Made by a program: the position numbers and the translations under genes. Shown piece after piece: positions 8,846 to 60,622 of a stretch of DNA of 64,000 bases; within the stretch, counting starts at the first letter, position 1; the number at the start of each line of letters is the position of its first letter. A model generated the notes under the pieces. That model searched no databases. It had not been told where the DNA came from and saw nothing but the letters and a program-made list of their open reading frames with translations. This stretch comes from Clostridia bacterium. Its GTDB lineage: Bacteria > Bacillota > Clostridia > TANB77 > CAG-508. The stretch is taken from NCBI GenBank assembly GCA_017511265.1, contig JAFWKV010000029.1, forward strand, positions 547 through 64,546, read 5' to 3'.

Positions 8846-9659
8846 TTATTGCTTGCTTAAATTCTTCATCATTAGGTGCTTTTCCATGCCATTCTACTTT
8901 ATTTTCCATAAATGAAACACCTTTGCCTTTTACTGTTTTTGCAATTATGCAAGTAGGCTTTCCTTTTGTATCTTTTGCTTTTCCGAAAGCTCGAATAATT
9001 TCTTCAAAATTGTGTCCATCTATTGTAAATGTTTCAAATCCAAAACTTTTAAATTTTTCCTCAATTTTGTTTAGTCCTATAACTTCTTCTATAGTACCAT
9101 CTATTTGTAAATTATTATTATCTACGATTACACATAAATTATCTAATTTGTATTTATTTGCAGACATTGCAGCTTCCCATACTTGTCCTTCTTCTATTTC
9201 CCCATCTCCTAAAATTGTGTACACTCTATAATTTTTATTATCTAATTTTCCTGCAATTGCCATTCCTACTGCTGCAGATATTCCTTGTCCTAATGATCCT
9301 GTTGACATATCTATTCCAGGTACTTTTGTCATATCGGGATGTCCTTGCAGATTGCCGTCTATTTTTCTGAATTTGCTCAAGTCCTCCATACTAAAATATC
9401 CTCTTAAGGCTAATGCTGAATATAATGCAGCAACGCAATGACCTTTAGATAGAACAAATCTATCTCTATCTTCCAAATTTGGATTTTTTTCATCAATATT
9501 CATTTCGTTAAAATATAACACTGACATAATGTCTGCTATTGAAAGTGAGCCGCCTGGGTGTCCTGATCTTGCATTATAAACTTGTTTTACTATTTCTATT
9601 CTTATTTGTTTGGCTTTTTCTTCTATTTCTTGAATTTTGGTAATTTCCAAAAAAATCAC
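8808..9659 (-). CDS. Transketolase, N-terminal (thiamine-diphosphate-binding) subunit. The C-terminal tail comes from the repeat.
   Basis: 283 aa with SGHPGGSLS and GDGEIEEGQVWEA (TPP-binding) motifs. The tail [11 protein letters not shown] is encoded by the hairpin at 8811-8845. The start is uncertain (GTG 9659 or TTG 9650). Confidence 0.88.
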   Translation of the reverse strand: MIFLEITKIQEIEEKAKQIRIEIVKQVYNARSGHPGGSLSIADIMSVLYFNEMNIDEKNPNLEDRDRFVLSKGHCVAALYSALALRGYFSMEDLSKFRKIDGNLQGHPDMTKVPGIDMSTGSLGQGISAAVGMAIAGKLDNKNYRVYTILGDGEIEEGQVWEAAMSANKYKLDNLCVIVDNNNLQIDGTIEEVIGLNKIEEKFKSFGFETFTIDGHNFEEIIRAFGKAKDTKGKPTCIIAKTVKGKGVSFMENKVEWHGKAPNDEEFKQAINDVFWDGAKKHH

Positions 9660-10867: not shown

Positions 10868-11230
10868 GTGCTGCCTTTTGGGACGGGATAAAAAAACATC
10901 ACCCTGTTCAATCAATTGGGGCGGAGATTTTTAGCAAGAAATCAGCTATTTGGGCACAGACTCCCATAATTATTAAAATTTATTGAAATTTCGAATGTGC
11001 CGTGAAGCAATTGTACAAAATATTAAATAGAAGTCAAAAAGGGTCCTGTCTTCGGGTATAGTTTTGACTTCTCTTTTAGATTTTGTAAATTGTGTAGCAA
11101 ACCGAGAAATGTAAATAAATTTTAATAATTATGGGAGTCTGTGCCCAAATAGCTGATTTCTTGCTAAAAATCTCCGCCCCAATTGATTGAACAGGATGAT
11201 GTTTTTTCCCCCGTCCCAAAAGACAGCATC
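10868..11230. repeat. ~360-bp foldback element with ~120-nt near-identical inverted arms that begin with the GGGACGG module and a ~120-nt structured core
   Basis: The arm GCTGCCTTTTGGGACGGGATAAAAAAACATCACCCTGTTCAATCAATTGGGGCGGAGATTTTTAGCAAGAAATCAGCTATTTGGGCACAGACTCCCATAATTATTAAAATTTATT reappears as its reverse complement at 11104-11226, with an 82-nt perfect stretch. It fills the whole gap between two convergent genes. Confidence 0.92.
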
Positions 11231-16139: not shown

Positions 16140-17392
<1,253 letters not shown>

Positions 17393-17395
17393 TTA

Positions 17396-19752: not shown

Positions 19753-19790
19753 TGTTTTCTCCTTTATTTACAGTACTACTATTATACTTG

Positions 19791-20059
19791 AAAATGAAAA
19801 AATGGTCAAGAGGAACTGCTGTCTTTTGGGACGGGGCAAAAAAACATCACCTATCCATTTATCATATTTATTAAACATTACGACCTTGTTGTCGCTTTCT
19901 TTCATTGAAGTTTAATTAATGAAAGGAAAGCTCCAGCCGACTACGCTTCGCTCCGCCTACGCGGTCTACATTTTTTAATAAATATGATAAATGGATAGGT
20001 GATGTTTTTTTGCCCCGTCCCAAAAGACAGCAGTTCCTCTTGACCATTTTTTTCATTTT
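19791..20059. repeat. ~270-bp foldback element (MITE-like) that is homologous, in inverted orientation, to the element at 33296-33500
   Basis: The arms AAAATGAAAAAATGGTCAAGAGGAACTGCTGTCTTTTGGGACGGGGCAAAAAAACATCACCTATCCATTTATCATATTTATTAAA and its reverse complement flank a GC-rich core containing GCGTAGGCGGAGCGAAGCG (as its reverse complement). It overlaps the rnr stop codon. Confidence 0.92.
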
Positions 20060-21831
20060 CTCTCAAAGTCTACTTGTCTTAATTCCTTACTTGCGTTAAT
20101 AACACGAACTTTCATCTTATCACCAATTTTAAAAGTTATTTTGGTTTTTTCTCCAATTAAAATTTTTCTATTCTCATCATATTCAAAATACTCATCACCT
20201 AAATTTTCAAATCTAACTAATCCTTCTACTGTATTTTCTAGCTCAACAAACACGCCAAACTGTGTTACTGAAGAAATAATTCCATCATATTCTTCTCCAA
20301 TTTTATTTAGCATATACTCCGCTTTTTTTAGTTTGTCAGCATCTCTTTCAGCTTTAGTTGCAATCTTTTCCCTTTCAGATGATTGTGCAGCCCTTTTTTC
20401 TGCTTGTTCAAAATGTTCTTCTAAATAATTTTCGCTAACGTCGTAATTTTCTTCTAAGTATTTAGAAATAATTCTGTGTATAAAGAGGTCTGGATATCTT
20501 CTTATTGGTGATGTAAAATGACAATAATATTTTCCTGCTATTCCAAAATGTCCTTTATTCTCAGCTTCATACCTCGCTACCTTCATCGTCCTTAGCACTA
20601 GTGTTGATATAACTCTTTCTTCTTCTTTTCCTTTTACTTCTTCTAATATTTTTGCAAATTCTTTTGGGTAAACTTTATCTTGTGTTATTTTTACTTTTAG
20701 CCCAAAATTAAATAAAAATTTATTAAGCTCTTTAACTTTATCTATATCTGGATCTTCGTGTACTCTATATATAAATGGCGCTTCTAACCAATAAAACTTT
20801 TCTGCTATTGTTTCATTTGCTATTAGCATAAATTGTTCTATTATTTCATTTGCAAATGATGTTTCATATTTATGCACATCTATTGCTTTTCCTTCAATAT
20901 CTAATATAATTTCACTCTCTGGAATATCTAGATTTAAATATCCATTTTCAGCTCTCTTATTTTTTAATATTTTTGCTAATTCTTCCATTAGTTTGAAGTC
21001 TTTTATATAGTCTTTGTATTTTTCAAGAATTTGTTTGTCTGAACCATCTATAATTTTTTGCACATCGTGGTAATTCATTCTTTTGCTAACATTTATAATT
21101 CCTTTGTACACATCTGAATTTACAACATTTCCATTTTTGTCAATTTCCATCGTGCAACTTAAAGTAAATCTATCTTCTCCTGCGTTTAAGCTACATATTC
21201 CATTTGACAGTTCTCGTGGTAGCATTGGTATTACTCTACCTAGCATATACACACTTGTCCCTCTAAGTAGTGCTTCTTGGTCTAACAAGCTATTTTCTTT
21301 CACATAGTAACTTACATCTGCTATATGCACATCTAAAATGTAATTTCCATTTTCTGATTTTGTGACTCTAACAGCATCATCTAGATCTTTTGCATCCTCT
21401 CCATCTATTGTAAAAATTACGTCTTCTCTTTTGTCTTTTCTGTATGGAATATCTTTTTTGTCTGTTTTTCTCGATACCCTTTTTGCTTCTTGAATAACAT
21501 TTTTAGGGAACTCTGATGGCAAGCCATATTCTTTTATTATTGAAAGCATATCCACTCCTGCTTGATTTATGCCTCCTATTACTTCTATTATTCTACCTTC
21601 AGCTTTTTTTCCTTTTTTAGGAAGCTTTGTAATTTTTACTACTACTTTATGATTGTGCCTTGCTTTTCCAAACCCACTTTTGGGAATAAATATGTCTGTT
21701 CCTAAACTTTTATCATCAGGAATTACAAAGCCAAAACTTTTGTTGTACTGAAATGTACCAACCACAGTATCTGAGCTTAATCCTTTTTCACTTCTTTTAT
21801 TTATGCTTTCTTCAAAATCTTTATTTATCAT
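20053..21831 (-). CDS. rnr: Ribonuclease R (short form without the N-terminal HTH region)
   Basis: 592 aa with cold-shock-like domains, an RNB catalytic domain (IDGEDAKDLDDAV, FTSPIRRYPD) and a C-terminal S1 domain. Confidence 0.92.
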   Translation of the reverse strand: MINKDFEESINKRSEKGLSSDTVVGTFQYNKSFGFVIPDDKSLGTDIFIPKSGFGKARHNHKVVVKITKLPKKGKKAEGRIIEVIGGINQAGVDMLSIIKEYGLPSEFPKNVIQEAKRVSRKTDKKDIPYRKDKREDVIFTIDGEDAKDLDDAVRVTKSENGNYILDVHIADVSYYVKENSLLDQEALLRGTSVYMLGRVIPMLPRELSNGICSLNAGEDRFTLSCTMEIDKNGNVVNSDVYKGIINVSKRMNYHDVQKIIDGSDKQILEKYKDYIKDFKLMEELAKILKNKRAENGYLNLDIPESEIILDIEGKAIDVHKYETSFANEIIEQFMLIANETIAEKFYWLEAPFIYRVHEDPDIDKVKELNKFLFNFGLKVKITQDKVYPKEFAKILEEVKGKEEERVISTLVLRTMKVARYEAENKGHFGIAGKYYCHFTSPIRRYPDLFIHRIISKYLEENYDVSENYLEEHFEQAEKRAAQSSEREKIATKAERDADKLKKAEYMLNKIGEEYDGIISSVTQFGVFVELENTVEGLVRFENLGDEYFEYDENRKILIGEKTKITFKIGDKMKVRVINASKELRQVDFERK

Positions 21832-24645: not shown

Positions 24646-24743
24646 CTTTATGGCCCCTTTCTTTTGTTAAAATTTCTCACAGCTATTTTATACAAAAAAT
24701 CGACAAATGTAAATGGTTTTTTTACAATTTTTTTATTTTTTTT

Positions 24744-24764
24744 CTCCGTCCCAAAAAACAGCAC
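24744..24764. repeat. Solo half-copy of the A-type GGGACGG module
   Basis: CTCCGTCCCAAAAAACAGCAC abuts the holA stop codon. Confidence 0.7.
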
Positions 24765-25786
24765 TATGAGCAATACGCGCACAAAATTGACTCCAGCCCA
24801 ACCTGGACATCAATAAGCCCAATCTTATACTTATAATCCAAATCAATTAGCTCCATAATAATTGTATGTAACTCATTAAGTTTAAAATAGCCTGCTTGAG
24901 TTTTATACTTATTAGCTAAAAAAGTTTGATTTGGCTTTAGTTCAAGACTAGGAATAATGTCTTTATTACTATTAACTGCAATTTTTGTTAAATACAATCT
25001 TTTAAAATGGTTATACAAAGTAATAAGAATTTTTTGCACAGGCTCTTTAGCATAAATTAAATTATGCAAAACCTCCAAAGCCTTAGCAACATTTTTTTTG
25101 CCTAAATTATCAGTCATTTCAAATACAATACTTTCTATTTTTTTTATAGCAAGTTTATCAATATCTTCTCTAGTTATTGTGCCACCTTCTCCAGCATATT
25201 CTATTAGTTTTCTAATTTCGTTTATTAGTTCTTGCATATTTGTGCCACAGCATTCGATAAAATATTGTATTGTTGCATTATCAATATTGACTTTATAACC
25301 ATTGCAGATTGTTTTTATTCTTTTTTGTATTTGTGCAGGTTTTTGAAATTCAAATTTACATACTACTCCCTCTTTGTCTATAGTTGAATATAAATTGCTT
25401 TTACCCGCTTCTTCTTCAATAAATACAAGAATAACTGATTCTTTTATAATATCAATATTTTCTTCTATGTAATCATTCAGCTTGTCTCTAAAATTAGTTA
25501 TACTTTCTTTTTGTTTTTTTGCACCTGTTTTAAATAAGCCCGTATTTCTAGCAATTATAAGTTTTTTTTCATAACCAAAAGCAGGTGTTTGAATGTCTGA
25601 AATAATATTTTCAATAGTATCTTCATCAATATTAATATAATTAATTCCTGCAACAATTTCTCCAAAGTGTTTTTTTATTTTTTTTACATTGCTGTCTATT
25701 AAAAAAGTTTCCTCACCAAAAAGAAGGTATATGCTTGCTAAATTTCCACCTTTTAGTTCCTTTTCTAGTTCTTCTATTTTTAGCAT
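24764..25786 (-). CDS. holA: DNA polymerase III subunit delta
   Basis: 340 aa. The size and N-terminal pattern (IYLLFGEETFLID...) fit HolA. Confidence 0.8.
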   Translation of the reverse strand: MLKIEELEKELKGGNLASIYLLFGEETFLIDSNVKKIKKHFGEIVAGINYINIDEDTIENIISDIQTPAFGYEKKLIIARNTGLFKTGAKKQKESITNFRDKLNDYIEENIDIIKESVILVFIEEEAGKSNLYSTIDKEGVVCKFEFQKPAQIQKRIKTICNGYKVNIDNATIQYFIECCGTNMQELINEIRKLIEYAGEGGTITREDIDKLAIKKIESIVFEMTDNLGKKNVAKALEVLHNLIYAKEPVQKILITLYNHFKRLYLTKIAVNSNKDIIPSLELKPNQTFLANKYKTQAGYFKLNELHTIIMELIDLDYKYKIGLIDVQVGLESILCAYCS

Positions 25787-32385: not shown

Positions 32386-33294
32386 ATGGTATTTTTATTA
32401 ATTTTACTTGCTATATTTTTTATTATAGCAATACTATCAATAAAGATTGTTAGACAATCTGAAGTATATGTAATTGAAAGACTTGGTAAATTTCATAAAG
32501 TGGCAGATGCAGGTCTTACAATTATAATTCCATTTATAGACCATGTTAGGTCAGTAGTTAGTTTAAAACAGCAAACAATGGATATTCCACCACAAGGTGT
32601 TATTACAAAAGATAATGTTACAATAACAATTGATACAGTTGTATTCTATCAAGTAATAGACCCAGCAAAAGCTGTATATGAAATTCAAAGTTTAAAAAAA
32701 GGTATTGAATACATTTCTACAACTGCTATTCGTGATATTATTGGTAAAATGGACTTAGATGAAACATTTACATCAAGAGAAGAAATTAATAGTAAATTAA
32801 GAATTGTTCTAGATGAAGCAACAGACAAATGGGGTTGTAATATTGATAGAGTTGAAGTTCAAGATATTAATCCACCTGCAGAAATTAGAGATGCTATGGA
32901 AAAGCAAATGAATGCAGAAAGAAATAAAAGAGCTTTAATTCTTGAGGCTGAAGCTGAAAAACAATCTGCTATTACAATTGCTGAAGGTAAAAAACAAGCA
33001 GCTATATTAGAGGCTGAAGCTGATAAAGAGGCTAAAATTAGAAGAGCTGCCGGTGAAGCTGAAGCTATAAAAGAAGTTGCCGAAGCTAAAGCTAAAGAAG
33101 TTCAAATGGTTTATGAAGCTATTAAAAAAGCTGATCCTGATGAAAAATTGGTTCAAATTAAATCACTTGAGGCTTTAGAAGAAGTTGCTAAGGGTGAAGC
33201 TAATAAGGTGTTTATTCCTTTTGATGCTACTACTGCTCTTGGTAGCCTTGGTGCTCTAGCTGATGTAGTTAAGGATGGAAAAGAGAAAAAGTAA
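32386..33294 (+). CDS. SPFH/band-7 (stomatin/prohibitin-like) membrane protein
   Basis: 302 aa. N-terminal TM segment, then a band-7 core (IVRQSEVYVIERLGKF...DNVTITIDTVVFYQVIDP...) and an Ala/Glu-rich coiled coil. Confidence 0.9.
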   Translation: MVFLLILLAIFFIIAILSIKIVRQSEVYVIERLGKFHKVADAGLTIIIPFIDHVRSVVSLKQQTMDIPPQGVITKDNVTITIDTVVFYQVIDPAKAVYEIQSLKKGIEYISTTAIRDIIGKMDLDETFTSREEINSKLRIVLDEATDKWGCNIDRVEVQDINPPAEIRDAMEKQMNAERNKRALILEAEAEKQSAITIAEGKKQAAILEAEADKEAKIRRAAGEAEAIKEVAEAKAKEVQMVYEAIKKADPDEKLVQIKSLEALEEVAKGEANKVFIPFDATTALGSLGALADVVKDGKEKK

Positions 33295-33295
33295 T

Positions 33296-33500
33296 GATGT
33301 CTTTTGGGACGGGGTAAAAAAACAGCACCCTGTCTCTTATTATATTTATTAAAAAATGAAGACTGCGTAGGCGGAGCGAAGCGAAGTGGATGGAGCTTCC
33401 CCCACCTTTTTTTAAAGGGTGGGAAGCGACAACAAGGTCGTAATGTTTAATAAATATAATAAGAGACAGGGTGCTGTTTTTTTACCCCGTCCCAAAAGAC
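33296..33500. repeat. 205-bp foldback element (MITE-like) with 58-nt perfect inverted arms starting with the GGGACGG module; homolog of 19791-20059
   Basis: TGATGTCTTTTGGGACGGGGTAAAAAAACAGCACCCTGTCTCTTATTATATTTATTAAA and its exact reverse complement flank the core ...GACTGCGTAGGCGGAGCGAAGCGAAGTGGATGGAGC[hairpin]GCGACAACAAGGTCGTAATG. It fills the gap between the convergent SPFH and ileS genes. Confidence 0.93.
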
Positions 33501-33501
33501 A

Positions 33502-36500
33502 TCATTTTACCACTTCTACATCAATTTTCAAAATTTCTCCATTAATTTTACATTCATTATAATTTACTCTAGTTTCATTAAAGAAAATATTTTCAGCTAA
33601 AGTATCTTTTTTTATTGTATCTTCGAATTTCTTTATAACACCTTCAAGCATTTCATTTTCAGCAACATAAAGATTAATTCTATCTAATACTTCAAAGTCA
33701 CAGTCTTTTCTCATATTTTGTACTTTTGATAAAATTTCTCTTAAATAGCCTTCTTCTTTTAATTCTGGTGTAATTGTCGTATCAAGTACAACACCTACTT
33801 CACCTTCACCACTAAATGCAAAACCTTCTTTTCCTTGCATTGTTACAAGTAAGTTATTTTGGTCAAGTGCAATTTGAGTTCCGTCTATGTCGATATATTC
33901 TACTCCACCATTTTTTACTGTATTTGCTAAATCCATTTGATTTTTCTTTGCTATTTCTTGTCTTATTTGTGGAATTAACTTACCATATTCTCTACCTAGT
34001 ACTGGTAAATTTGGCTTAATTTCAAAGTCTACGTATTCTGACATTTCTGCTCCAAGTACAACTTCTTTAACATTTAGTTCTTCTTTAACAATATGGCTAT
34101 AGTATTCTGGTAAAGTGTCAACTGAAATTAACATTTTTGAAAGTGGTTGTCTATTTTTGATATTAGCTGCATTTCTGGCCCCTCTACCTAGTTTTACTAT
34201 CTTGTATGCTAAGCTCATCTCTTCTTCTAATTTATGGTCTATAACACTTTCATCTACTTCTGGCCATAAACATAGATGTACACTCTCAGGTGCAGTTTTA
34301 TCTATTCCAACTACTAAATTTTGATAAATTTCGTCTGTAATGAATGGTACAAATGGTGCTGAAATCTTTATAAGTGTTGTTAAAACTTTATATAGTGTCA
34401 CATAAGCCCCTATTTTATCATCAGTTAAAGTCTCACTCCAATACCTTTCTCTGTTTCTACGTACATACCAGTTTGATAATTCATCTGTGAAATTTTCTAT
34501 TAATAATGCTGCAGAAGTAATATCATAAGCTTCTAGCTTGCTATCGACTTCTTTGACCAATGTATTTAGTTTCGAAATTATCCATTTATCCATTATGTTT
34601 TCGCTTTTGAAGTTGCTGTATTTTAATGGATTAAATTGATCTATTTCTGCATATAAAACATAGAATGAATATACATTCCATAATGTTGATAGAAAGCCTC
34701 TTTGTGTTTCTTGTACATTTTCTAAAGAAAGTCTTGTAGGTAGCCATGGTGCACTACAAGTATAAAAATGCCATCTTGTAGCATCTGCTCCAACTGTATC
34801 TAATAGTGTAAACGGATCTACTCCATTTTTCTTTGATTTAGACATTTTTTGCCCTTTTCCGTCTAATACATGTCCTAAAACTATACAGTTTTCAAATGGT
34901 GAACGTCCAAATAATGCTGTTCCAATTGCAGTTAATGTATAGAACCATCCTCTTGTTTGGTCAACCGCTTCTGATATAAATTGTGCTGGAAAATGATTGT
35001 CAAACACATCCTTATTTTCAAATGGATAATGCCACTGTGCATATGGCATTGAACCAGAGTCGAACCAACAATCTATAACTTCCTTAAACCTTGTCATTTC
35101 TTTTCCACAATCTGGGCATTTTAAATGAACATCATCTATATATGGCTTATGCAATTCTATATCATCTGGGCAATCTACTGCTTTTTCTTTTAATTCTGCA
35201 ATGCTTCCTATACATTCTTGATGTCCACATTCACATTGCCAAACTGGTAATGGTGTTCCCCAATATCTGTCTCTTGAAATTCCCCAGTCAATAACATTCT
35301 CTAAAAATTTACCAAATCTTCCAGTTCTAATTGTGTCTGGATACCAATTTACTTTGTTATTATTGCTTACTAATTCATCTCTTAATTTACTCATTGCAAC
35401 AAACCAGCTTGCTTTTGGATAGTATAATAGTGGTGTGTCACATCTCCAACAATGTGGATATGAGTGTAAATGCTTTGCTGAACTAAACAATTTGTTTTCT
35501 TGTTTTAGCCAGTTTACTATGTCTTGGTCACAGTCTTTTACAAAGCGACCTGCCCATGGTGTAACTTCTTCTACAAATTTTCCTGATTTATCAACTAAGT
35601 TTATAAATGCTATTCCATTTTGTTTTGAAACTAAGCTGTCATCTTCACCATAAGCTGGTGCAATATGAACAATTCCAGTACCATCTTCTAAATTTACGTA
35701 ATCCCCATGAATTACTTCAAATGCTTTTCCTTCTACTTTAGCAAATGGCATTAGCTGCTCATATTTAGTTCCCAGTAATTCTGTTCCAGGAAATTCTTTT
35801 TCAATTTCATATGGTGTTTCCTTTAATACTACTTTTAATAAATCTTTTGCTAATATATAGTTTTCATATTCTGGTTCCTCTTCTGTTCCAACATTTGCTT
35901 TAACTTCTACATAAGTATAAGCTTTGTTTACACATAATGCTAGGTTTGATGGTAATGTCCATGGTGTTGTAGTCCATGCTAAAATGTATTTGTTTTCCCC
36001 TACTACTTTAAATTTTGCAATACATGTTAGGTCTTTTACATCTTTATATCCTTGTGCTACCTCATGTGAAGAAAGTGCTGTTCCACATCTTGGACAATAT
36101 GGCATTACTTTATGTCCTTCATATAATAATCCCTTTTCCCACATTTGTTTTAAAGCCCACCATACTGACTCAATATAATTATTATGATATGTTACATAAG
36201 GATTATCCATATCTACCCAAAATCCTACTTTGTTTGTCATTTTCTCCCAGGTTGAAACATATGTAAACACACTTTCCTTACATTCCTTTACAAATTTCTC
36301 TACTCCATATTCTTCAATTTGTTCTTTACCTGAAATTCCTAATTTTTTTTCAATTTCAAGTTCAACTGGCAATCCATGTGTGTCCCAACCGGCTTTTCTG
36401 TCTACATGATATCCCTTCATTACTTTATATCTTGGGATTATGTCTTTCATTACTCTTGTTTCTATATGACCAACGTGTGGCATTCCATTTGCTGTTGGTG

Positions 36501-36651: not shown

Positions 36652-36732
36652 GTGATGTTTTTTGGGACGGGGCAAAAAAACATCAAATTTTTTATTAGTG
36701 ATGTTTTTTTGCCCCGTCCCAAAAAACATCAC
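36652..36732. repeat. 81-bp twin A-type GGGACGG hairpin (inverted pair) between the 774-aa gene and ileS
   Basis: GTGATGTTTTTTGGGACGGGGCAAAAAAACATCA-AATTTTTTATTA-GTGATGTTTTTTTGCCCCGTCCCAAAAAACATCAC. The TGA stop of the upstream gene lies in its last stem. Confidence 0.92.
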
Positions 36733-42498: not shown

Positions 42499-42522
42499 AC
42501 ACTTTTTCTCCTTTCTTTTGTA

Positions 42523-42577
42523 GTTGTCAATGGGGACGCTTTCGAAGTTGTCATTTAGAACCGTCCCAATTGACAAC
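42523..42577. repeat. B-type GGGACGG element: a truncated arm plus a complete hairpin
   Basis: GTTGTCAATGGGGACGC-TTTCGAA-GTTGTCATTTAGAACCGTCCCAATTGACAAC lies directly upstream of the ATPase RBS. Confidence 0.88.
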
Positions 42578-42578
42578 T

Positions 42579-42637
42579 AAAAATAAAAATAGACTCTTAA
42601 AAGAAATAGCCTCTTTAGGTATTTCTTCTAAAAGTCT
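42579..42637 (-). terminator. Rho-independent terminator downstream of tRNA-Glu
   Basis: On the minus strand, AGACTTTTAGAAGAAATAC...CTATTTCTTTTAAGAGTCT (19-bp stem) is followed by ATTTTTATTTTT. Confidence 0.7.
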
Positions 42638-43228: not shown

Positions 43229-43239
43229 TTTTCCTCCTT

Positions 43240-43268
43240 GTGTCAATTAAGCCCGTCCCCATTGACAC
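43240..43268. repeat. B-type GGGACGG hairpin at the rbgA/mrnC junction
   Basis: GTGTCAATTAAGCCCGTCCCCATTGACAC encodes the last codons (CVNGDGLN*) of rbgA and ends 4 nt before the mrnC SD. Confidence 0.9.
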
Positions 43269-44157
43269 ACTTTTCTAATGTTATTTTTCCTATTGTTCCA
43301 CTTCTAAATTCGTCTAAGATTATTCTTGCTGTTTTTTCTTCATCTATGTTTCCACCTGACATTATAGCTCCTCTTTTTTTGCCTATTAAAAGTACTATGT
43401 CATATATATTAACATTTTCAGGTTCGTCTCTATTTAGTATTTCTTCTACTTCTTCTGGCTTTATTTTATACCTTTTTAATAAATTTTCTCTGTAATTTTC
43501 TAGTAGATATTTTATTAAGTAATACGCAATGTCTGTTCTTTCTAGTATGTTATCTTTTATTGTTCCTGTGAAAGCTAAATTTAGTGCTACTTCTTGGCTT
43601 TCGAATTTAGGCCACAAAACTCCTGGTGTGTCTAATAATTCTATGTTGTCATTTATACGTATCCATTGATTTTGTCTTGTTACTCCAGGTCTATTAGCAA
43701 CCTGAACTGCTCCTTTTTTTGCTATTCTATTTATTAATGATGATTTTCCTACATTCGGTATTCCTAAAATCATTGCCCTTATTTTTCTGCCTACTCTGCC
43801 TTTTTGTGCTAATTTTTCTAAGTCTTCCTTCATTGTTTGTTCTATAAGTTTTATTGCTTCTTTTATTCCTCTTCCAGTATTTGCATCTGTTAGTACTGCT
43901 GGAGTCCCCTGGGTTTTAAAATATTCTATCCATTTTTTATTTTGAATTTCATCTGATAGGTCGCTTTTGTTTAATATTATTATTTTCTTTTTTCCTTTGG
44001 TTATTTCCGCTATATCAGGATTCTGGCTAGATATTGGTATTCTACTGTCTAATAGTTCTACTACTACATCTATTAGTTTTAAATCTTCTTTGATTTTTCT
44101 TTTTGTTTTTGCCATGTGTCCTGGATACCAGTTAATATTAGTTTTATTATCGTTCAA
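43243..44157 (-). CDS. rbgA: Ribosome biogenesis GTPase A (YlqF/RbgA)
   Basis: 304 aa with WYPGHMAKT and circularly permuted GTPase motifs (NKSDL ... GIPNVGKSSLINR ... DTPG). Confidence 0.92.
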   Translation of the reverse strand: MNDNKTNINWYPGHMAKTKRKIKEDLKLIDVVVELLDSRIPISSQNPDIAEITKGKKKIIILNKSDLSDEIQNKKWIEYFKTQGTPAVLTDANTGRGIKEAIKLIEQTMKEDLEKLAQKGRVGRKIRAMILGIPNVGKSSLINRIAKKGAVQVANRPGVTRQNQWIRINDNIELLDTPGVLWPKFESQEVALNLAFTGTIKDNILERTDIAYYLIKYLLENYRENLLKRYKIKPEEVEEILNRDEPENVNIYDIVLLIGKKRGAIMSGGNIDEEKTARIILDEFRSGTIGKITLEKCVNGDGLN

Positions 44158-58039: not shown

Positions 58040-60622
58040 CTATTTTCTTGCAAATTTTCTTTCTAAATCATATTTAGTCATTTTAATCGCAATTGGTCTA
58101 CCATGAGGACATGTGAATGGATTTGGTAATTTTAATAATTCATTTAGCAATTTATGTACCTCTTCCTCACTTAAATCCATTCCAGCTTTTACTGCTGCTT
58201 TGCATGCTACTGTTGCAATAAATCTTTCTTCTATTTCTTGTTTTGCTGTTCTTGCTATTGAATTTATTTCATCTAGTGTTTCTAAGAATAGTTCTTTTGT
58301 GTCTAAATTAATACATATTTCTGGAACTCCTGATAATTTTATGGTATTTTCTCCAAATTCTTCTAATACAAAGCCTGCTCTTTCAAACATTTTTATATTA
58401 TCTCTGGTAATATCCATTTCTTTATGTGTTAATGTAATAACATCTGGAAGTAGCATTAATTGTGAATTTTTTGATACTTCTCCACTATAATAATTATTTT
58501 TTACCTTTTCATATAGAATTCTTTCATGGGCTGCATGTTGATCAAACATATACAATTCTTTGTTCATTTCTAATATTATATAAGTTTTAAATGCTATTCC
58601 AATATATCTATATTCTGGTGCTTGTTCTTCTTCTATTTTTTCGAAAATTGATACTCTATTGTCTTCTGAAATAATGTCATATGCACTATTTACTTTTTTA
58701 GCATCATCTTCTTCAGTATTTATATCTTTTTCTTCTTTTTCTATCTCTGTTTCGTCAATTTTAGGCATTACTCCAAATGTTTTATAGTACATTTCTTTAA
58801 AGTCTAAAGGCATTTCTTGTTCTGTATTTTCTAGCATTTCATCTATTTTGCTCTTTACCTCTTCCGCTTCTTTTTGTAATTCTTCGTTTTGAATAGTTTC
58901 TTGGGCTTCATTTACTTCTTCTGCTTCATTGGTTAGAATTGCTTCAGCTTCATTATTTAATTCATTTTGTTCTTCATTTTCATGTTCATTTTTCATATTA
59001 ATTATTGCTTTTGGCAATTCATCTTCACTTGTTTCTGTAGTTGTAGTATTTTGGTTTAATTTATTGATTTCGTTGTTTTCAATTACTGCATTTTCTTCAT
59101 TTATCTCTGTTACTACATTTGAATCTGTTTCGTTAGTTTCAAGTTTTTCTTGTGCTTTTAACACATACTCTGTTTTTTCTTCTTCAACATCTATATTACT
59201 TTTTTCTTCTTCATCTTCATTAATTGTATATCCAAATTCTTTTTTAGCATTGTCAACCTCTGCTTGCATTTTTTGTTGAAGTTGCTTTAGTTGTTCTAAT
59301 ACTTCAAATGTATCAATAAATTCTCCTGTTGTTTTTTTACTTTCTTCTTTTGGAGTTTTTGTATATTCTTCCTTTACCTTTTGATTTTCTTGTATATTAA
59401 TTTCTTGTGCTTTTTCTTCTTGTTTATGTTCTTCTTGTTTATCATTATATATTTGGGAAATAATGTTATCTCTTTCTCCTATGTCATTTATTTCTTTGTC
59501 GATTTCCTCTTTTTTCTTTTTCCTCCAGCCAAATAAACCTCCTGCTCTATCTTCTTTATGTGGCTTAATAACTTCAGGCAATGTATTTTCAATCTTTTTA
59601 TGTTCTGGTTCTTTTGCAGTATTAGCTACAAGTTCACTTTTAAGTAAAGCATCTTTTACTGTATGGTATATTGCTTTAAAAATTTTGTTTTCTTCTTCAA
59701 ATCTAACTTCTAATTTTGCTGGGTGCACATTTACATCTACTTTACTTGGATCTAATTCAATATTTAATACTACAAATCCAAATTTACCAAGTGGTATCAT
59801 TCCTTTGAATGCTTCAGCTACAGCTGCAGATAATGTTTTGTCTTTTATATATCTTTTATTAACAAAAAATATTTGCCTTGACCTGTTTGATCTTGCAGTT
59901 TCAGGTTTTCCAACAATTCCTTTGACTTTAATATCTTCATATTTATACTCGGTTGTTATTGCAGCTTCTGCTACATCTTTTCCATAAATACTATATATTA
60001 CACTTGATAGCTTTCCATCTCCTGTTGTTTGAATTATTGTTTTTCCTGTATTTATAAATTTAAATGCTATTTCTGGATGTACTAATGCACTATGTGTTAT
60101 GACATCTTCTATGTATCCTGATTCTGTATAATCCTTTTTTAAAAATTTATATCTTACTGGTGTATTATAAAATAGGTTGTTTACTGTAATTATTGTACCT
60201 GTAGAACATGCAGCCTCTTCCTTTGTTAATATATTTCCACCTTCTACAACTACTCTATATCCTTCACTTTGAACTGCTGTTTTTGATACTAATTCAACAT
60301 TTGCTACTGCTGCAATACTGGCTAATGCTTCTCCTCTAAACCCCATTGATCTTACTGTTTGTAAATCATCAGCTTTCCTTATTTTACTTGTTGCATGTCT
60401 TTCAAATGCCATTTCTAAATCATCTGCCGCTATTCCCATTCCGTTGTCTACTATTCTTATGTAAGATATTCCACCATTTCTGATTTCTACTGTAATATTA
60501 TTTGCTCCTGCATCTATAGAATTTTCAATCATTTCTTTTATTACTGATGCTGGTCTCTCTATAACTTCTCCTGCTGCTATTTTGTTTATTGTTAGATCGT
60601 CTAGTAAAACTATATTTCCCAT
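58040..60622 (-). CDS. mutL: DNA mismatch repair endonuclease MutL with an expanded ~400-aa Glu/Lys/Asn-rich linker
   Basis: 860 aa with the GHKL ATPase N-domain (AAGEVIERPASVIKE, DNG.GI, GFRGEAL) and the C-terminal endonuclease motif DQHAAHERILYE. Confidence 0.95.
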   Translation of the reverse strand: MGNIVLLDDLTINKIAAGEVIERPASVIKEMIENSIDAGANNITVEIRNGGISYIRIVDNGMGIAADDLEMAFERHATSKIRKADDLQTVRSMGFRGEALASIAAVANVELVSKTAVQSEGYRVVVEGGNILTKEEAACSTGTIITVNNLFYNTPVRYKFLKKDYTESGYIEDVITHSALVHPEIAFKFINTGKTIIQTTGDGKLSSVIYSIYGKDVAEAAITTEYKYEDIKVKGIVGKPETARSNRSRQIFFVNKRYIKDKTLSAAVAEAFKGMIPLGKFGFVVLNIELDPSKVDVNVHPAKLEVRFEEENKIFKAIYHTVKDALLKSELVANTAKEPEHKKIENTLPEVIKPHKEDRAGGLFGWRKKKKEEIDKEINDIGERDNIISQIYNDKQEEHKQEEKAQEINIQENQKVKEEYTKTPKEESKKTTGEFIDTFEVLEQLKQLQQKMQAEVDNAKKEFGYTINEDEEEKSNIDVEEEKTEYVLKAQEKLETNETDSNVVTEINEENAVIENNEINKLNQNTTTTETSEDELPKAIINMKNEHENEEQNELNNEAEAILTNEAEEVNEAQETIQNEELQKEAEEVKSKIDEMLENTEQEMPLDFKEMYYKTFGVMPKIDETEIEKEEKDINTEEDDAKKVNSAYDIISEDNRVSIFEKIEEEQAPEYRYIGIAFKTYIILEMNKELYMFDQHAAHERILYEKVKNNYYSGEVSKNSQLMLLPDVITLTHKEMDITRDNIKMFERAGFVLEEFGENTIKLSGVPEICINLDTKELFLETLDEINSIARTAKQEIEERFIATVACKAAVKAGMDLSEEEVHKLLNELLKLPNPFTCPHGRPIAIKMTKYDLERKFARK

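Follow-up and report, generated by a model that had tools for sequence, protein, structure and literature searches.

How do the two arms of a long inverted repeat stay exactly complementary while their sequence changes? The question is raised by two homologous foldback elements, E1 and E2, in a stretch of 64,000 nucleotides (the window) from an uncultured rumen Clostridia bacterium with 29% GC. The first-pass annotation of this DNA offered a choice between selection for a folded structure and a mechanism that copies one arm from the other. That proved to be the right question to ask, and of the two answers the DNA-level one is favored by arms that mirror each other in Watson–Crick pairs only, by indels and a sequence block that are mirrored as well, and by relatives of the elements whose arms have decayed. 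Both elements exist as described, with slightly wider extents than first noted (19790-20060 and 33293-33506), and are nested in the manner of Russian dolls, with an outer block, a module, an inner arm and a core. Their parts are as follows, with the strand given where one applies.

19790..20060, minus strand: E1, whole foldback; the core reads GCGTAGGCGG... on this strand
19790..19875: E1 arm on the side of the 440-aa gene; outer block, GGGACGG module (19815-19851) and inner arm (19852-19875)
19876..19973, minus strand: E1 core, asymmetric and GC-rich, 98 nt
19894..19931, minus strand: central hairpin of E1, GCTTTC...GAAAGC, containing a single bulge; distally it is unrelated to the hairpin of E2
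19974..20060: E1 arm on the rnr side; module (19998-20034) and rnr stop codon (20053-20055)
33293..33506, plus strand: E2, whole foldback, with Band_7 and ileS converging on it
33293..33353: E2 left arm; module (33293-33329) and inner arm (33330-33353), overlapping the Band_7 stop codon (33292-33294)
33354..33445, plus strand: E2 core, asymmetric and GC-rich, 92 nt
33395..33427, plus strand: imperfect hairpin at the center of E2, GCTTCC...GGAAGC, containing a G-U/G-T pair or bulges
33446..33506: E2 right arm, with the ileS stop codon (33502-33504) inside

The arms of E1 are 100% complementary over 79 nt (19797-19875 with 19974-20052) and reach 19790 and 20060 at 86 of 87 positions, with one indel in a run of A (A6 versus A7), while the right arm of E2 mirrors the left at 61 of 61 positions (100%). 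Folded as single-stranded DNA, E1 and E2 give –111.6 and –82.3 kcal/mol (z of about –23 and –20), and the foldback observation is far beyond chance. The only two occurrences of the 19-mer GCGTAGGCGGAGCGAAGCG in the window are on opposite strands, which confirms the proposed inverted orientation of E1 and E2; the cores also have GCGACAACAAGGTCGTAATG in common. An identity of about 88% had been estimated by eye, and BLAST gives 87–88% over the alignable parts.

When E1 is aligned with E2, 13 of the 82 predicted pairs are kept although both partners have changed. Ten of these lie in the arms, where no pair has changed on one side only and none is broken. The arms of the two elements are about 13% different, with two or three indels in addition and a 23-nt block, between AATGA and TGTC, that is found in both arms of E1. 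The claim that arm differences are mirrored within each element is thus borne out for substitutions, for indels and for the block. The middle of the arms had also been said to differ completely between the copies; with one gap the difference there comes down to about 4 substitutions and 2–3 indels. For the inner core hairpins, likewise described as wholly different and yet paired, the sequences are indeed distinct and do pair, but they share the base GCTTYC/GRAAGC and their pairing is imperfect in both copies. Since both central hairpins are imperfect, the process that perfects the arms does not act on them. By our counts the cores differ at about 4 positions in 65 nt and the arms at about 8 in 61, no clear sign of stronger conservation in the core.

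E1 and E2, first described as a pair, do not stand alone: they are long forms of a larger family of hairpins with the loop motif GGGACGG, which can be traced through the window by their outer module. The module is a hairpin of about 35 nt with this invariant loop and the consensus GTGATGTTTTTTGGGACGGGGCAAAAAAACATCAC. The motif occurs 19 times in the 64-kb window, against 0.35 expected, always as a hairpin loop or in an inverted doublet, and all 19 occurrences are intergenic or in the last codons of genes. Three settings can be told apart, namely single hairpins, short inverted doublets and long forms with differing interiors. Besides E1 and E2, the window holds the following members.

4637..4880: long form with a third stem type, GTTGTCAATTGGGACGGTTCTAATTGACAAC, and decayed arms
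8728..8845: short doublet, its arms at 94% and its right module within the end of the transketolase N-terminal subunit gene
10869..11228: E3, nested long form of 360 nt; module subtype TGCTGYCTTTTGGGACGG...CATCACCCTGT, inner arms and core unlike those of E1 and E2
17284..17393: doublet of a second stem type, TGTCAATGGGGACGGGCTTAATTGACA (17284-17371), abutting a half-module that ends ...GGGACGGAG
24729..24765, minus strand: solo half-module straight after the holA stop codon
29612..29658, plus strand: solo hairpin with a 17-bp stem and the loop GGGGACGGAGGAA, between murB and a CofD-family gene
36652..36732: minimal doublet, a pair of inverted 34-nt modules that are 100% complementary across a 13-nt spacer
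42507..42593: imperfect module pair upstream of a P-type ATPase gene
43236..43272, minus strand: solo module that ends at the ribosome-binding site of the next gene

Stem subtypes in the window are wholly different from one another (GATGTTTTTT, GTTGTCAATT, GTGTCAATG, GAGTGATGCTTT), and related genomes add AAACGGTCAA, TTCAACCAAAAG and AATCTGCCAAAA, with the loop motif constant throughout. E1, E2 and E3 have one module subtype in common, GTCTTTTGGGACGG...CATCACCYTRT, on either side of an interior that in E3 is unrelated. The E3 core contains a small hairpin of its own, and the orthologous site in two related species carries different hairpins with a GGGGACG loop. The doublet at 36652-36732 sits between a stop codon and the ileS ribosome-binding site. 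Modules and doublets are found in both orientations relative to transcription; in solo modules GGGACGG is mostly on the sense strand, directly after a stop codon, and in most of them it is on leading-strand sequence. Three half-modules (17372-17393, 24729-24765 and 5055-5074 of the related locus L034) consist of just the 5′ half of the stem and GGGACGG(AG), on the sense strand directly after a stop codon, and run on into unrelated sequence. A further foldback at 2028-2137 lacks the GGGACGG module; its AT-rich arms, perfect over 34 nt, enclose an asymmetric core of 42 nt that is richer in GC, which is the architecture of the inner part of E1 and E2. Close by, at 2150-6023, three tandem paralogues of a PcsB-like coiled-coil/M23 peptidase stand beside ftsX/ftsE, with repeat elements in their spacers. 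A literature search for GGGACGG returned nothing relevant.

Covariation in the 13-bp stem of the module was measured in an alignment of 28 distinct copies, taken both from the window and from related genomes. The stem is paired in 72.5% of cells, compared with 50.7% in shuffles (0 of 500 shuffles), and the covariation score is 0.53 against 0.21 for shuffled copies and 0.12–0.27 for slid registers. Changes are both-sided in 88 of the 96 changed cells and one-sided in 8. The module stems covary by Watson–Crick changes across the 28 copies. In the module alignment only the columns of the GGGACGG loop are invariant, and those at the foot of the stem vary; the local module stems at the outer ends of E1 and E2 are degenerate.

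Not all long members of the family are as exact as E1 and E2. The arms of E3 are imperfect (102 nt at 97%, and 89% over the outer 27 nt), with 13 mismatches and 8 gap positions over 173, the element at 4640 has 9 and 20 over 119, and a foldback in a related locus (L023:16262) has 8 and 8 over 135. Pairing is thus not maintained indefinitely, and as it is the older members that have decayed arms, perfection looks like a property of new copies. Young copies that are perfect and unlike each other, together with older copies that are imperfect, fit a regeneration of the arms at copying.

Our preferred reading, which we hold with moderate confidence, is that E1 and E2 are non-autonomous REPIN/MITE-like elements in which one arm was probably produced or corrected from the other at the level of DNA. 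They would be the long, cargo-carrying forms of a REP/REPIN-like family with a hairpin unit of about 35 nt, a family that fills intergenic spacers, between stop codons and ribosome-binding sites, or settles in last codons. A new copy would most likely be made or repaired as a single-strand hairpin, either through mismatch correction within the stem or through fold-back synthesis of one arm from the other, and resident copies would decay after insertion; the window contains a MutL gene (58040-60622). If new copies are born as perfect palindromes, every difference between lineages is automatically mirrored. Both the mobility through a single-strand hairpin and the involvement of an enzyme are what we infer for this family, and the arms would be regenerated at birth rather than homogenised later in place. 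The GC-rich core we regard as cargo, or possibly as a binding site. Counting against this reading are the finding of just two copies of the E-type core, both in the window, the lack of any transposase among the 54 window ORFs and of a recognisable target-site duplication, the position of the invariant motif in the loop, and the imperfection of the central core hairpins.

Mirroring of this kind had been called unusual, which overstates the case: compensatory changes are said to be frequent across the hairpins of REPINs (PMC3116915), and template switching is well known to homogenise the arms of inverted repeats (PMC8604942, PMC7202029). E1 and E2 could accordingly be ordinary inverted-repeat elements whose arms were homogenised in place, one being copied repeatedly onto the other after insertion by template switching at replication (quasipalindrome correction) or short-tract gene conversion. 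We think this unlikely to be the explanation, though it stays a serious rival because it is well-known behavior of inverted repeats in general, and were it true the mirroring would tell nothing of how the element moves. It accounts for Watson–Crick-only mirroring, for mirrored indels and for clustered multi-base differences, and the palindrome of E1 extends 3 nt into ancestral flank (GAA...TTC). It would also lead one to expect the same two sequences. Against it, E3, the element at 4640 and the doublet at 8728 have not been homogenised, although they share the contig and have arms just as long and spacers of similar size. In addition, reported template switching favors short spacers, where those here are 92–98 nt, and there are zero substitutions in E1 and E2, both of them recent insertions. 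Continuous homogenisation in place fits the pattern of perfect young and decayed old copies less well than arm regeneration at copying does. The quasipalindrome template switching of the Ripley model (PMC8604942, PMC7202029) resembles what is seen here in that one arm templates the other, palindromes become perfect and multi-base changes are clustered and mirrored; it differs in being a general mutational process and not a family of elements, usually with short arms and short spacers, and it leaves insertion, copy number and the conserved loop motif unexplained.

A more trivial source of perfect arms would be the assembly itself, if bubble-popping in de Bruijn graphs had collapsed small differences between them. 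The sequences come from short-read metagenome assemblies in which contigs often break inside these repeats; contigs from many samples break inside the E1 arm. E2 is nevertheless the same in four independent assemblies, one of them a MEGAHIT contig at k=141 (k exceeding the arm length), and E1 is present in a second assembly. Imperfect arms are kept elsewhere on the same contig, so the assembler does not force arm identity, and neither mirrored indels nor a 23-nt block present in both arms would be expected from an artefact of this type. We consider it extremely improbable.

Selection for an RNA fold is the other half of the original choice. Here E1 and E2 would be structured RNA, whether a small RNA or a cis-acting 3′UTR or 5′UTR stabiliser, terminator or protein-binding hairpin, with the fold kept by compensatory substitutions. 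Several features are in keeping with it: the GC-rich core stands out in a genome of 29% GC, the GCGTAGGCGG strand is downstream of a gene and on its sense strand in both copies, RNA folds of the two cores have z-scores of –1.7 to –3.0, one pair in the central hairpin of E2 is G-U compatible, and the sense-strand GGGACGG of most solo modules directly follows stop codons. A T-rich (in RNA, U-rich) tract follows the full E2 hairpin, on the ileS side only. The searches for RNA features argue the other way. Across the whole window only two tRNAs reach the Rfam gathering score, and in the E1 region a search up to E = 10 gave chance-level matches far below gathering scores, the best of them to a plant miRNA-precursor model (E = 1.4e-4, 27 bits, gathering score 64). 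Rfam detected no T-box for ileS in the window. Our scan found no promoter or terminator for the core, the terminator scan yielding only a 5-bp GCGAC/GTCGT stem, and in the basic module Ts lie 5′ and As 3′ of the stem, which is the wrong way round for an intrinsic terminator. The pattern of change is also not that of an RNA: none of the 10 arm changes is one-sided (G-U) and few of the module-stem cells are, and selection on an RNA has no need of 61–86 perfect pairs in a row. Both orientations are found among modules and doublets, conservation of the core does not clearly exceed that of the arms, and the elements are absent from close relatives. Taken together, this makes a structured RNA an improbable account of the elements.

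The absence from relatives can be read at both positions, as empty sites of the kind the first-pass annotation had suggested looking for. At the site of E2, the stop codons of ileS and Band_7 are 13 nt apart in two related loci (L024 and L025, 92% IleRS identity), and a relative at 89% IleRS identity carries a different GGGACGG palindrome there. At the site of E1, relatives with 86–88% RNase R identity (L044-L048) keep the gene order rnr, 440-aa gene, queA, tgt, with a spacer of 79–99 nt between the first two genes that lacks the element and with conserved flanks GAGAGAA ... CAAGTATAAT. Given separate empty sites in related genomes, E1 and E2 are separate insertions, fairly recent ones judging from these alleles, and not products of a local duplication, an origin that we set aside because the insertion sites and empty alleles are independent. 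Between queA and tgt, L046 has a spacer of 8 nt, L044 another palindrome and the window a half-module with a doublet; the L044 palindrome (4875-5036) lacks GGGACGG and has AT-rich arms and a GC-richer center. Foldbacks of different kinds have repeatedly settled in the intergenic sites of this genus.

Target-site duplications, which the first-pass annotation had also suggested looking for, did not emerge from the same comparison: no direct repeat could be recognised at the E1 or E2 junctions against the empty sites in L024 and L044/L046. This bears on a further alternative, that E1 and E2 are classical MITEs, internally deleted insertion sequences moved by a DDE transposase, with GGGACGG doublets as preferred targets for nested insertions. 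Their nested structure would suit such an origin, as would the occurrence of different interiors in E1, E2 and E3 within the same module subtype, and the start of the E2 inner arm, CTGTCTCTTAT, appears to match the IS50/Tn5 end (the Tn5 mosaic end) over 11 nt. Target-site duplications are missing at the outer and inner junctions alike, and the flanks of the inner unit are mirror images rather than direct repeats. Among the 54 ORFs of the window there is no transposase of any kind, and no full-length insertion sequence with the same ends was found in the window, the related loci, or plasmid or phage collections. The terminal inverted repeats of real insertion sequences are short and usually imperfect. 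We therefore rate a classical MITE as very improbable. The elements do have terminal inverted repeats and do not have a target-site duplication, and since the MITE definition fails on the latter we have filed them as being of the REP/REPIN/MITE kind.

One further comparison at the E1 site concerns strains. L034, with an rnr 99% identical to that of the window, has the rnr-side terminus of E1 up to ...TGCTGTCTTTTGGGACGG and beyond GGGACGG a different nested palindrome, followed by a different convergent gene (presumably the 3′ end of a Clp-type ATPase gene in L034 and L035, judged by eye; L035 is at 96%). In L034 (5039-5232) and L035 (2426-2509) the divergence from E1 begins exactly after GGGACGG. 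Either a rearrangement took place at the repeat, or two assemblies contain an identical mis-join, which is less likely.

Among known systems REPINs are the closest match, which is as far as we would take the comparison, without claiming membership. REPINs are inverted doublets of REP sequences that form a long hairpin or a "clover" (PMC3116915). The present family shares with REPs and REPINs (PMC3116915) a short hairpin unit that occurs singly or as an inverted doublet with a spacer, a doublet that can fold as one long or two local hairpins (36652-36732, 8728-8845 and 17284-17371 fit this), abundance, an extragenic location (in the 64 kb examined here), variability between close relatives and compensatory hairpin changes. 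It differs in that the invariant motif is in the loop, where REPs have a GTAG-type tetranucleotide at the foot of the stem, and in that the stems differ completely between subtypes. Its long forms, with interiors of 150–290 nt, near-perfect arms of 61–100 nt and an asymmetric GC-rich core, set it further apart, and we found no described counterpart of forms with such arms and such a core. No RAYT gene was seen in the window or in the Pfam lists of related loci; RAYT group 1 occurs in Clostridia. The host here is an AT-rich uncultured Clostridia lineage and not a proteobacterium.

Two other systems invite comparison. Correia elements of Neisseria and Rickettsia palindromic elements are small, non-coding, bounded by inverted repeats and polymorphic between strains, and they insert at gene ends, where they supply promoters or new C-termini and stop codons. 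Their terminal repeats are short and they usually duplicate the target (TA for Correia), in contrast to the elements here, whose arms are up to 86 nt and perfect, with a nested structure and no visible duplication. Members of the IS200/IS605 family recognise a DNA hairpin on one strand, make no target duplication, need no terminal inverted repeats and show an orientation bias linked to replication. The lack of a target duplication and the position of most solo GGGACGG motifs on leading-strand sequence are points of likeness to them. They differ in that the E elements are symmetric apart from the core and in that no Y1 transposase was found, PF01797 being absent from the Pfam lists of the related loci.

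A more specific version of a DNA-level mechanism can be put forward, which we regard as doubtful. The GGGACGG loop may be the recognition and cleavage site of a putative single-strand DNA enzyme of HUH/Y1 type that drives an undescribed REP-like system in uncultured rumen Clostridia, with long forms copied as half-elements (one arm and the core) and the second arm produced by fold-back synthesis. Elements would then be joined and nested at the GGGACGG loop, which would explain the junctions right after GGGACGG at 17380, at 24752 and in L034. If true, bacteria would have a mechanism of foldback transposition by which each new copy comes out as a perfect palindrome. On the way in which REPINs and other symmetric hairpin repeats regain their symmetry after moving, E1 and E2 bear directly, as two young insertions, about 13% diverged (with indels and the 23-nt block) and each flawless, with older relatives on the same contig that have decayed.

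Further copies of the GC-rich core were sought in GTDB representatives, JGI metagenomes, IMG/VR, PLSDB and INPHARED, and in all of these only two copies were found, both in the window. An exact scan for GCGTAGGCGGAGCGAAGCG in a set with a single genome for each GTDB species returned 14 matches, every one by chance and in a GC-rich genome. A scan of JGI metagenomes for GCGACAACAAGGTCGTAATG gave 7 hits, none of which is the element; at least 5 are in one conserved protein-coding region that we take to be hslV from reading the hit sequences. IMG/VR yielded 0 hits for GCGACAACAAGGTCGTAATG and 0 for the outer module, and E2 had no blastn match in PLSDB or INPHARED. In the related loci (about 250 kb, reached through IleRS and RNase R homologues) modules are present and the E-type core is absent. 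A peptide encoded by the core was considered and rejected, as the sole open frame seen in E2 is broken by a stop codon in E1. Strain variants carried no SNP by which mirroring could be followed, four loci (L015-L018) being identical and the contig of P0003 being identical and ending inside an arm. An apparent "read-through" RNase R of 618 aa (P0122, L033) comes from DNA identical to that of the window; its frame runs on into E1 because the gene caller took TGA for Trp.

Finally, we considered what the family does to neighboring genes. Both copies had been placed flush against stop codons, and the stops of rnr, Band_7 and ileS do lie in or overlap the arms, because TGA occurs within (G)TGATG. 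RNase R ends in ...FERK* in the window and in ...FERI(x)* in relatives. A module (8808-8848) encodes the final 11 codons and the stop of the gene for the transketolase N-terminal subunit, so the element has replaced the C-terminus of the protein. E1 also contributes to one promoter-like site, given below.

19781..19809, minus strand: promoter-like site with 11 of 12 consensus positions, upstream of the 440-aa gene

Its –35 hexamer TTGACC is in the E1 arm and is separated by a 17-nt spacer from a –10 hexamer TATAAT in flank that is conserved among relatives. The GGGACGG family rewrites gene ends, with new stop codons, new C-termini and one –35 box, and in this lineage it marks breakpoints of strain rearrangement and breaks metagenome assemblies. 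The opposite E1 arm aims an identical hexamer at rnr on the other strand. Across the window, 50 of the 54 ORFs are on the minus strand and the plus strand has a GC skew of –0.18 and an AT skew of –0.22, which places the window on one replichore with a strong strand bias.
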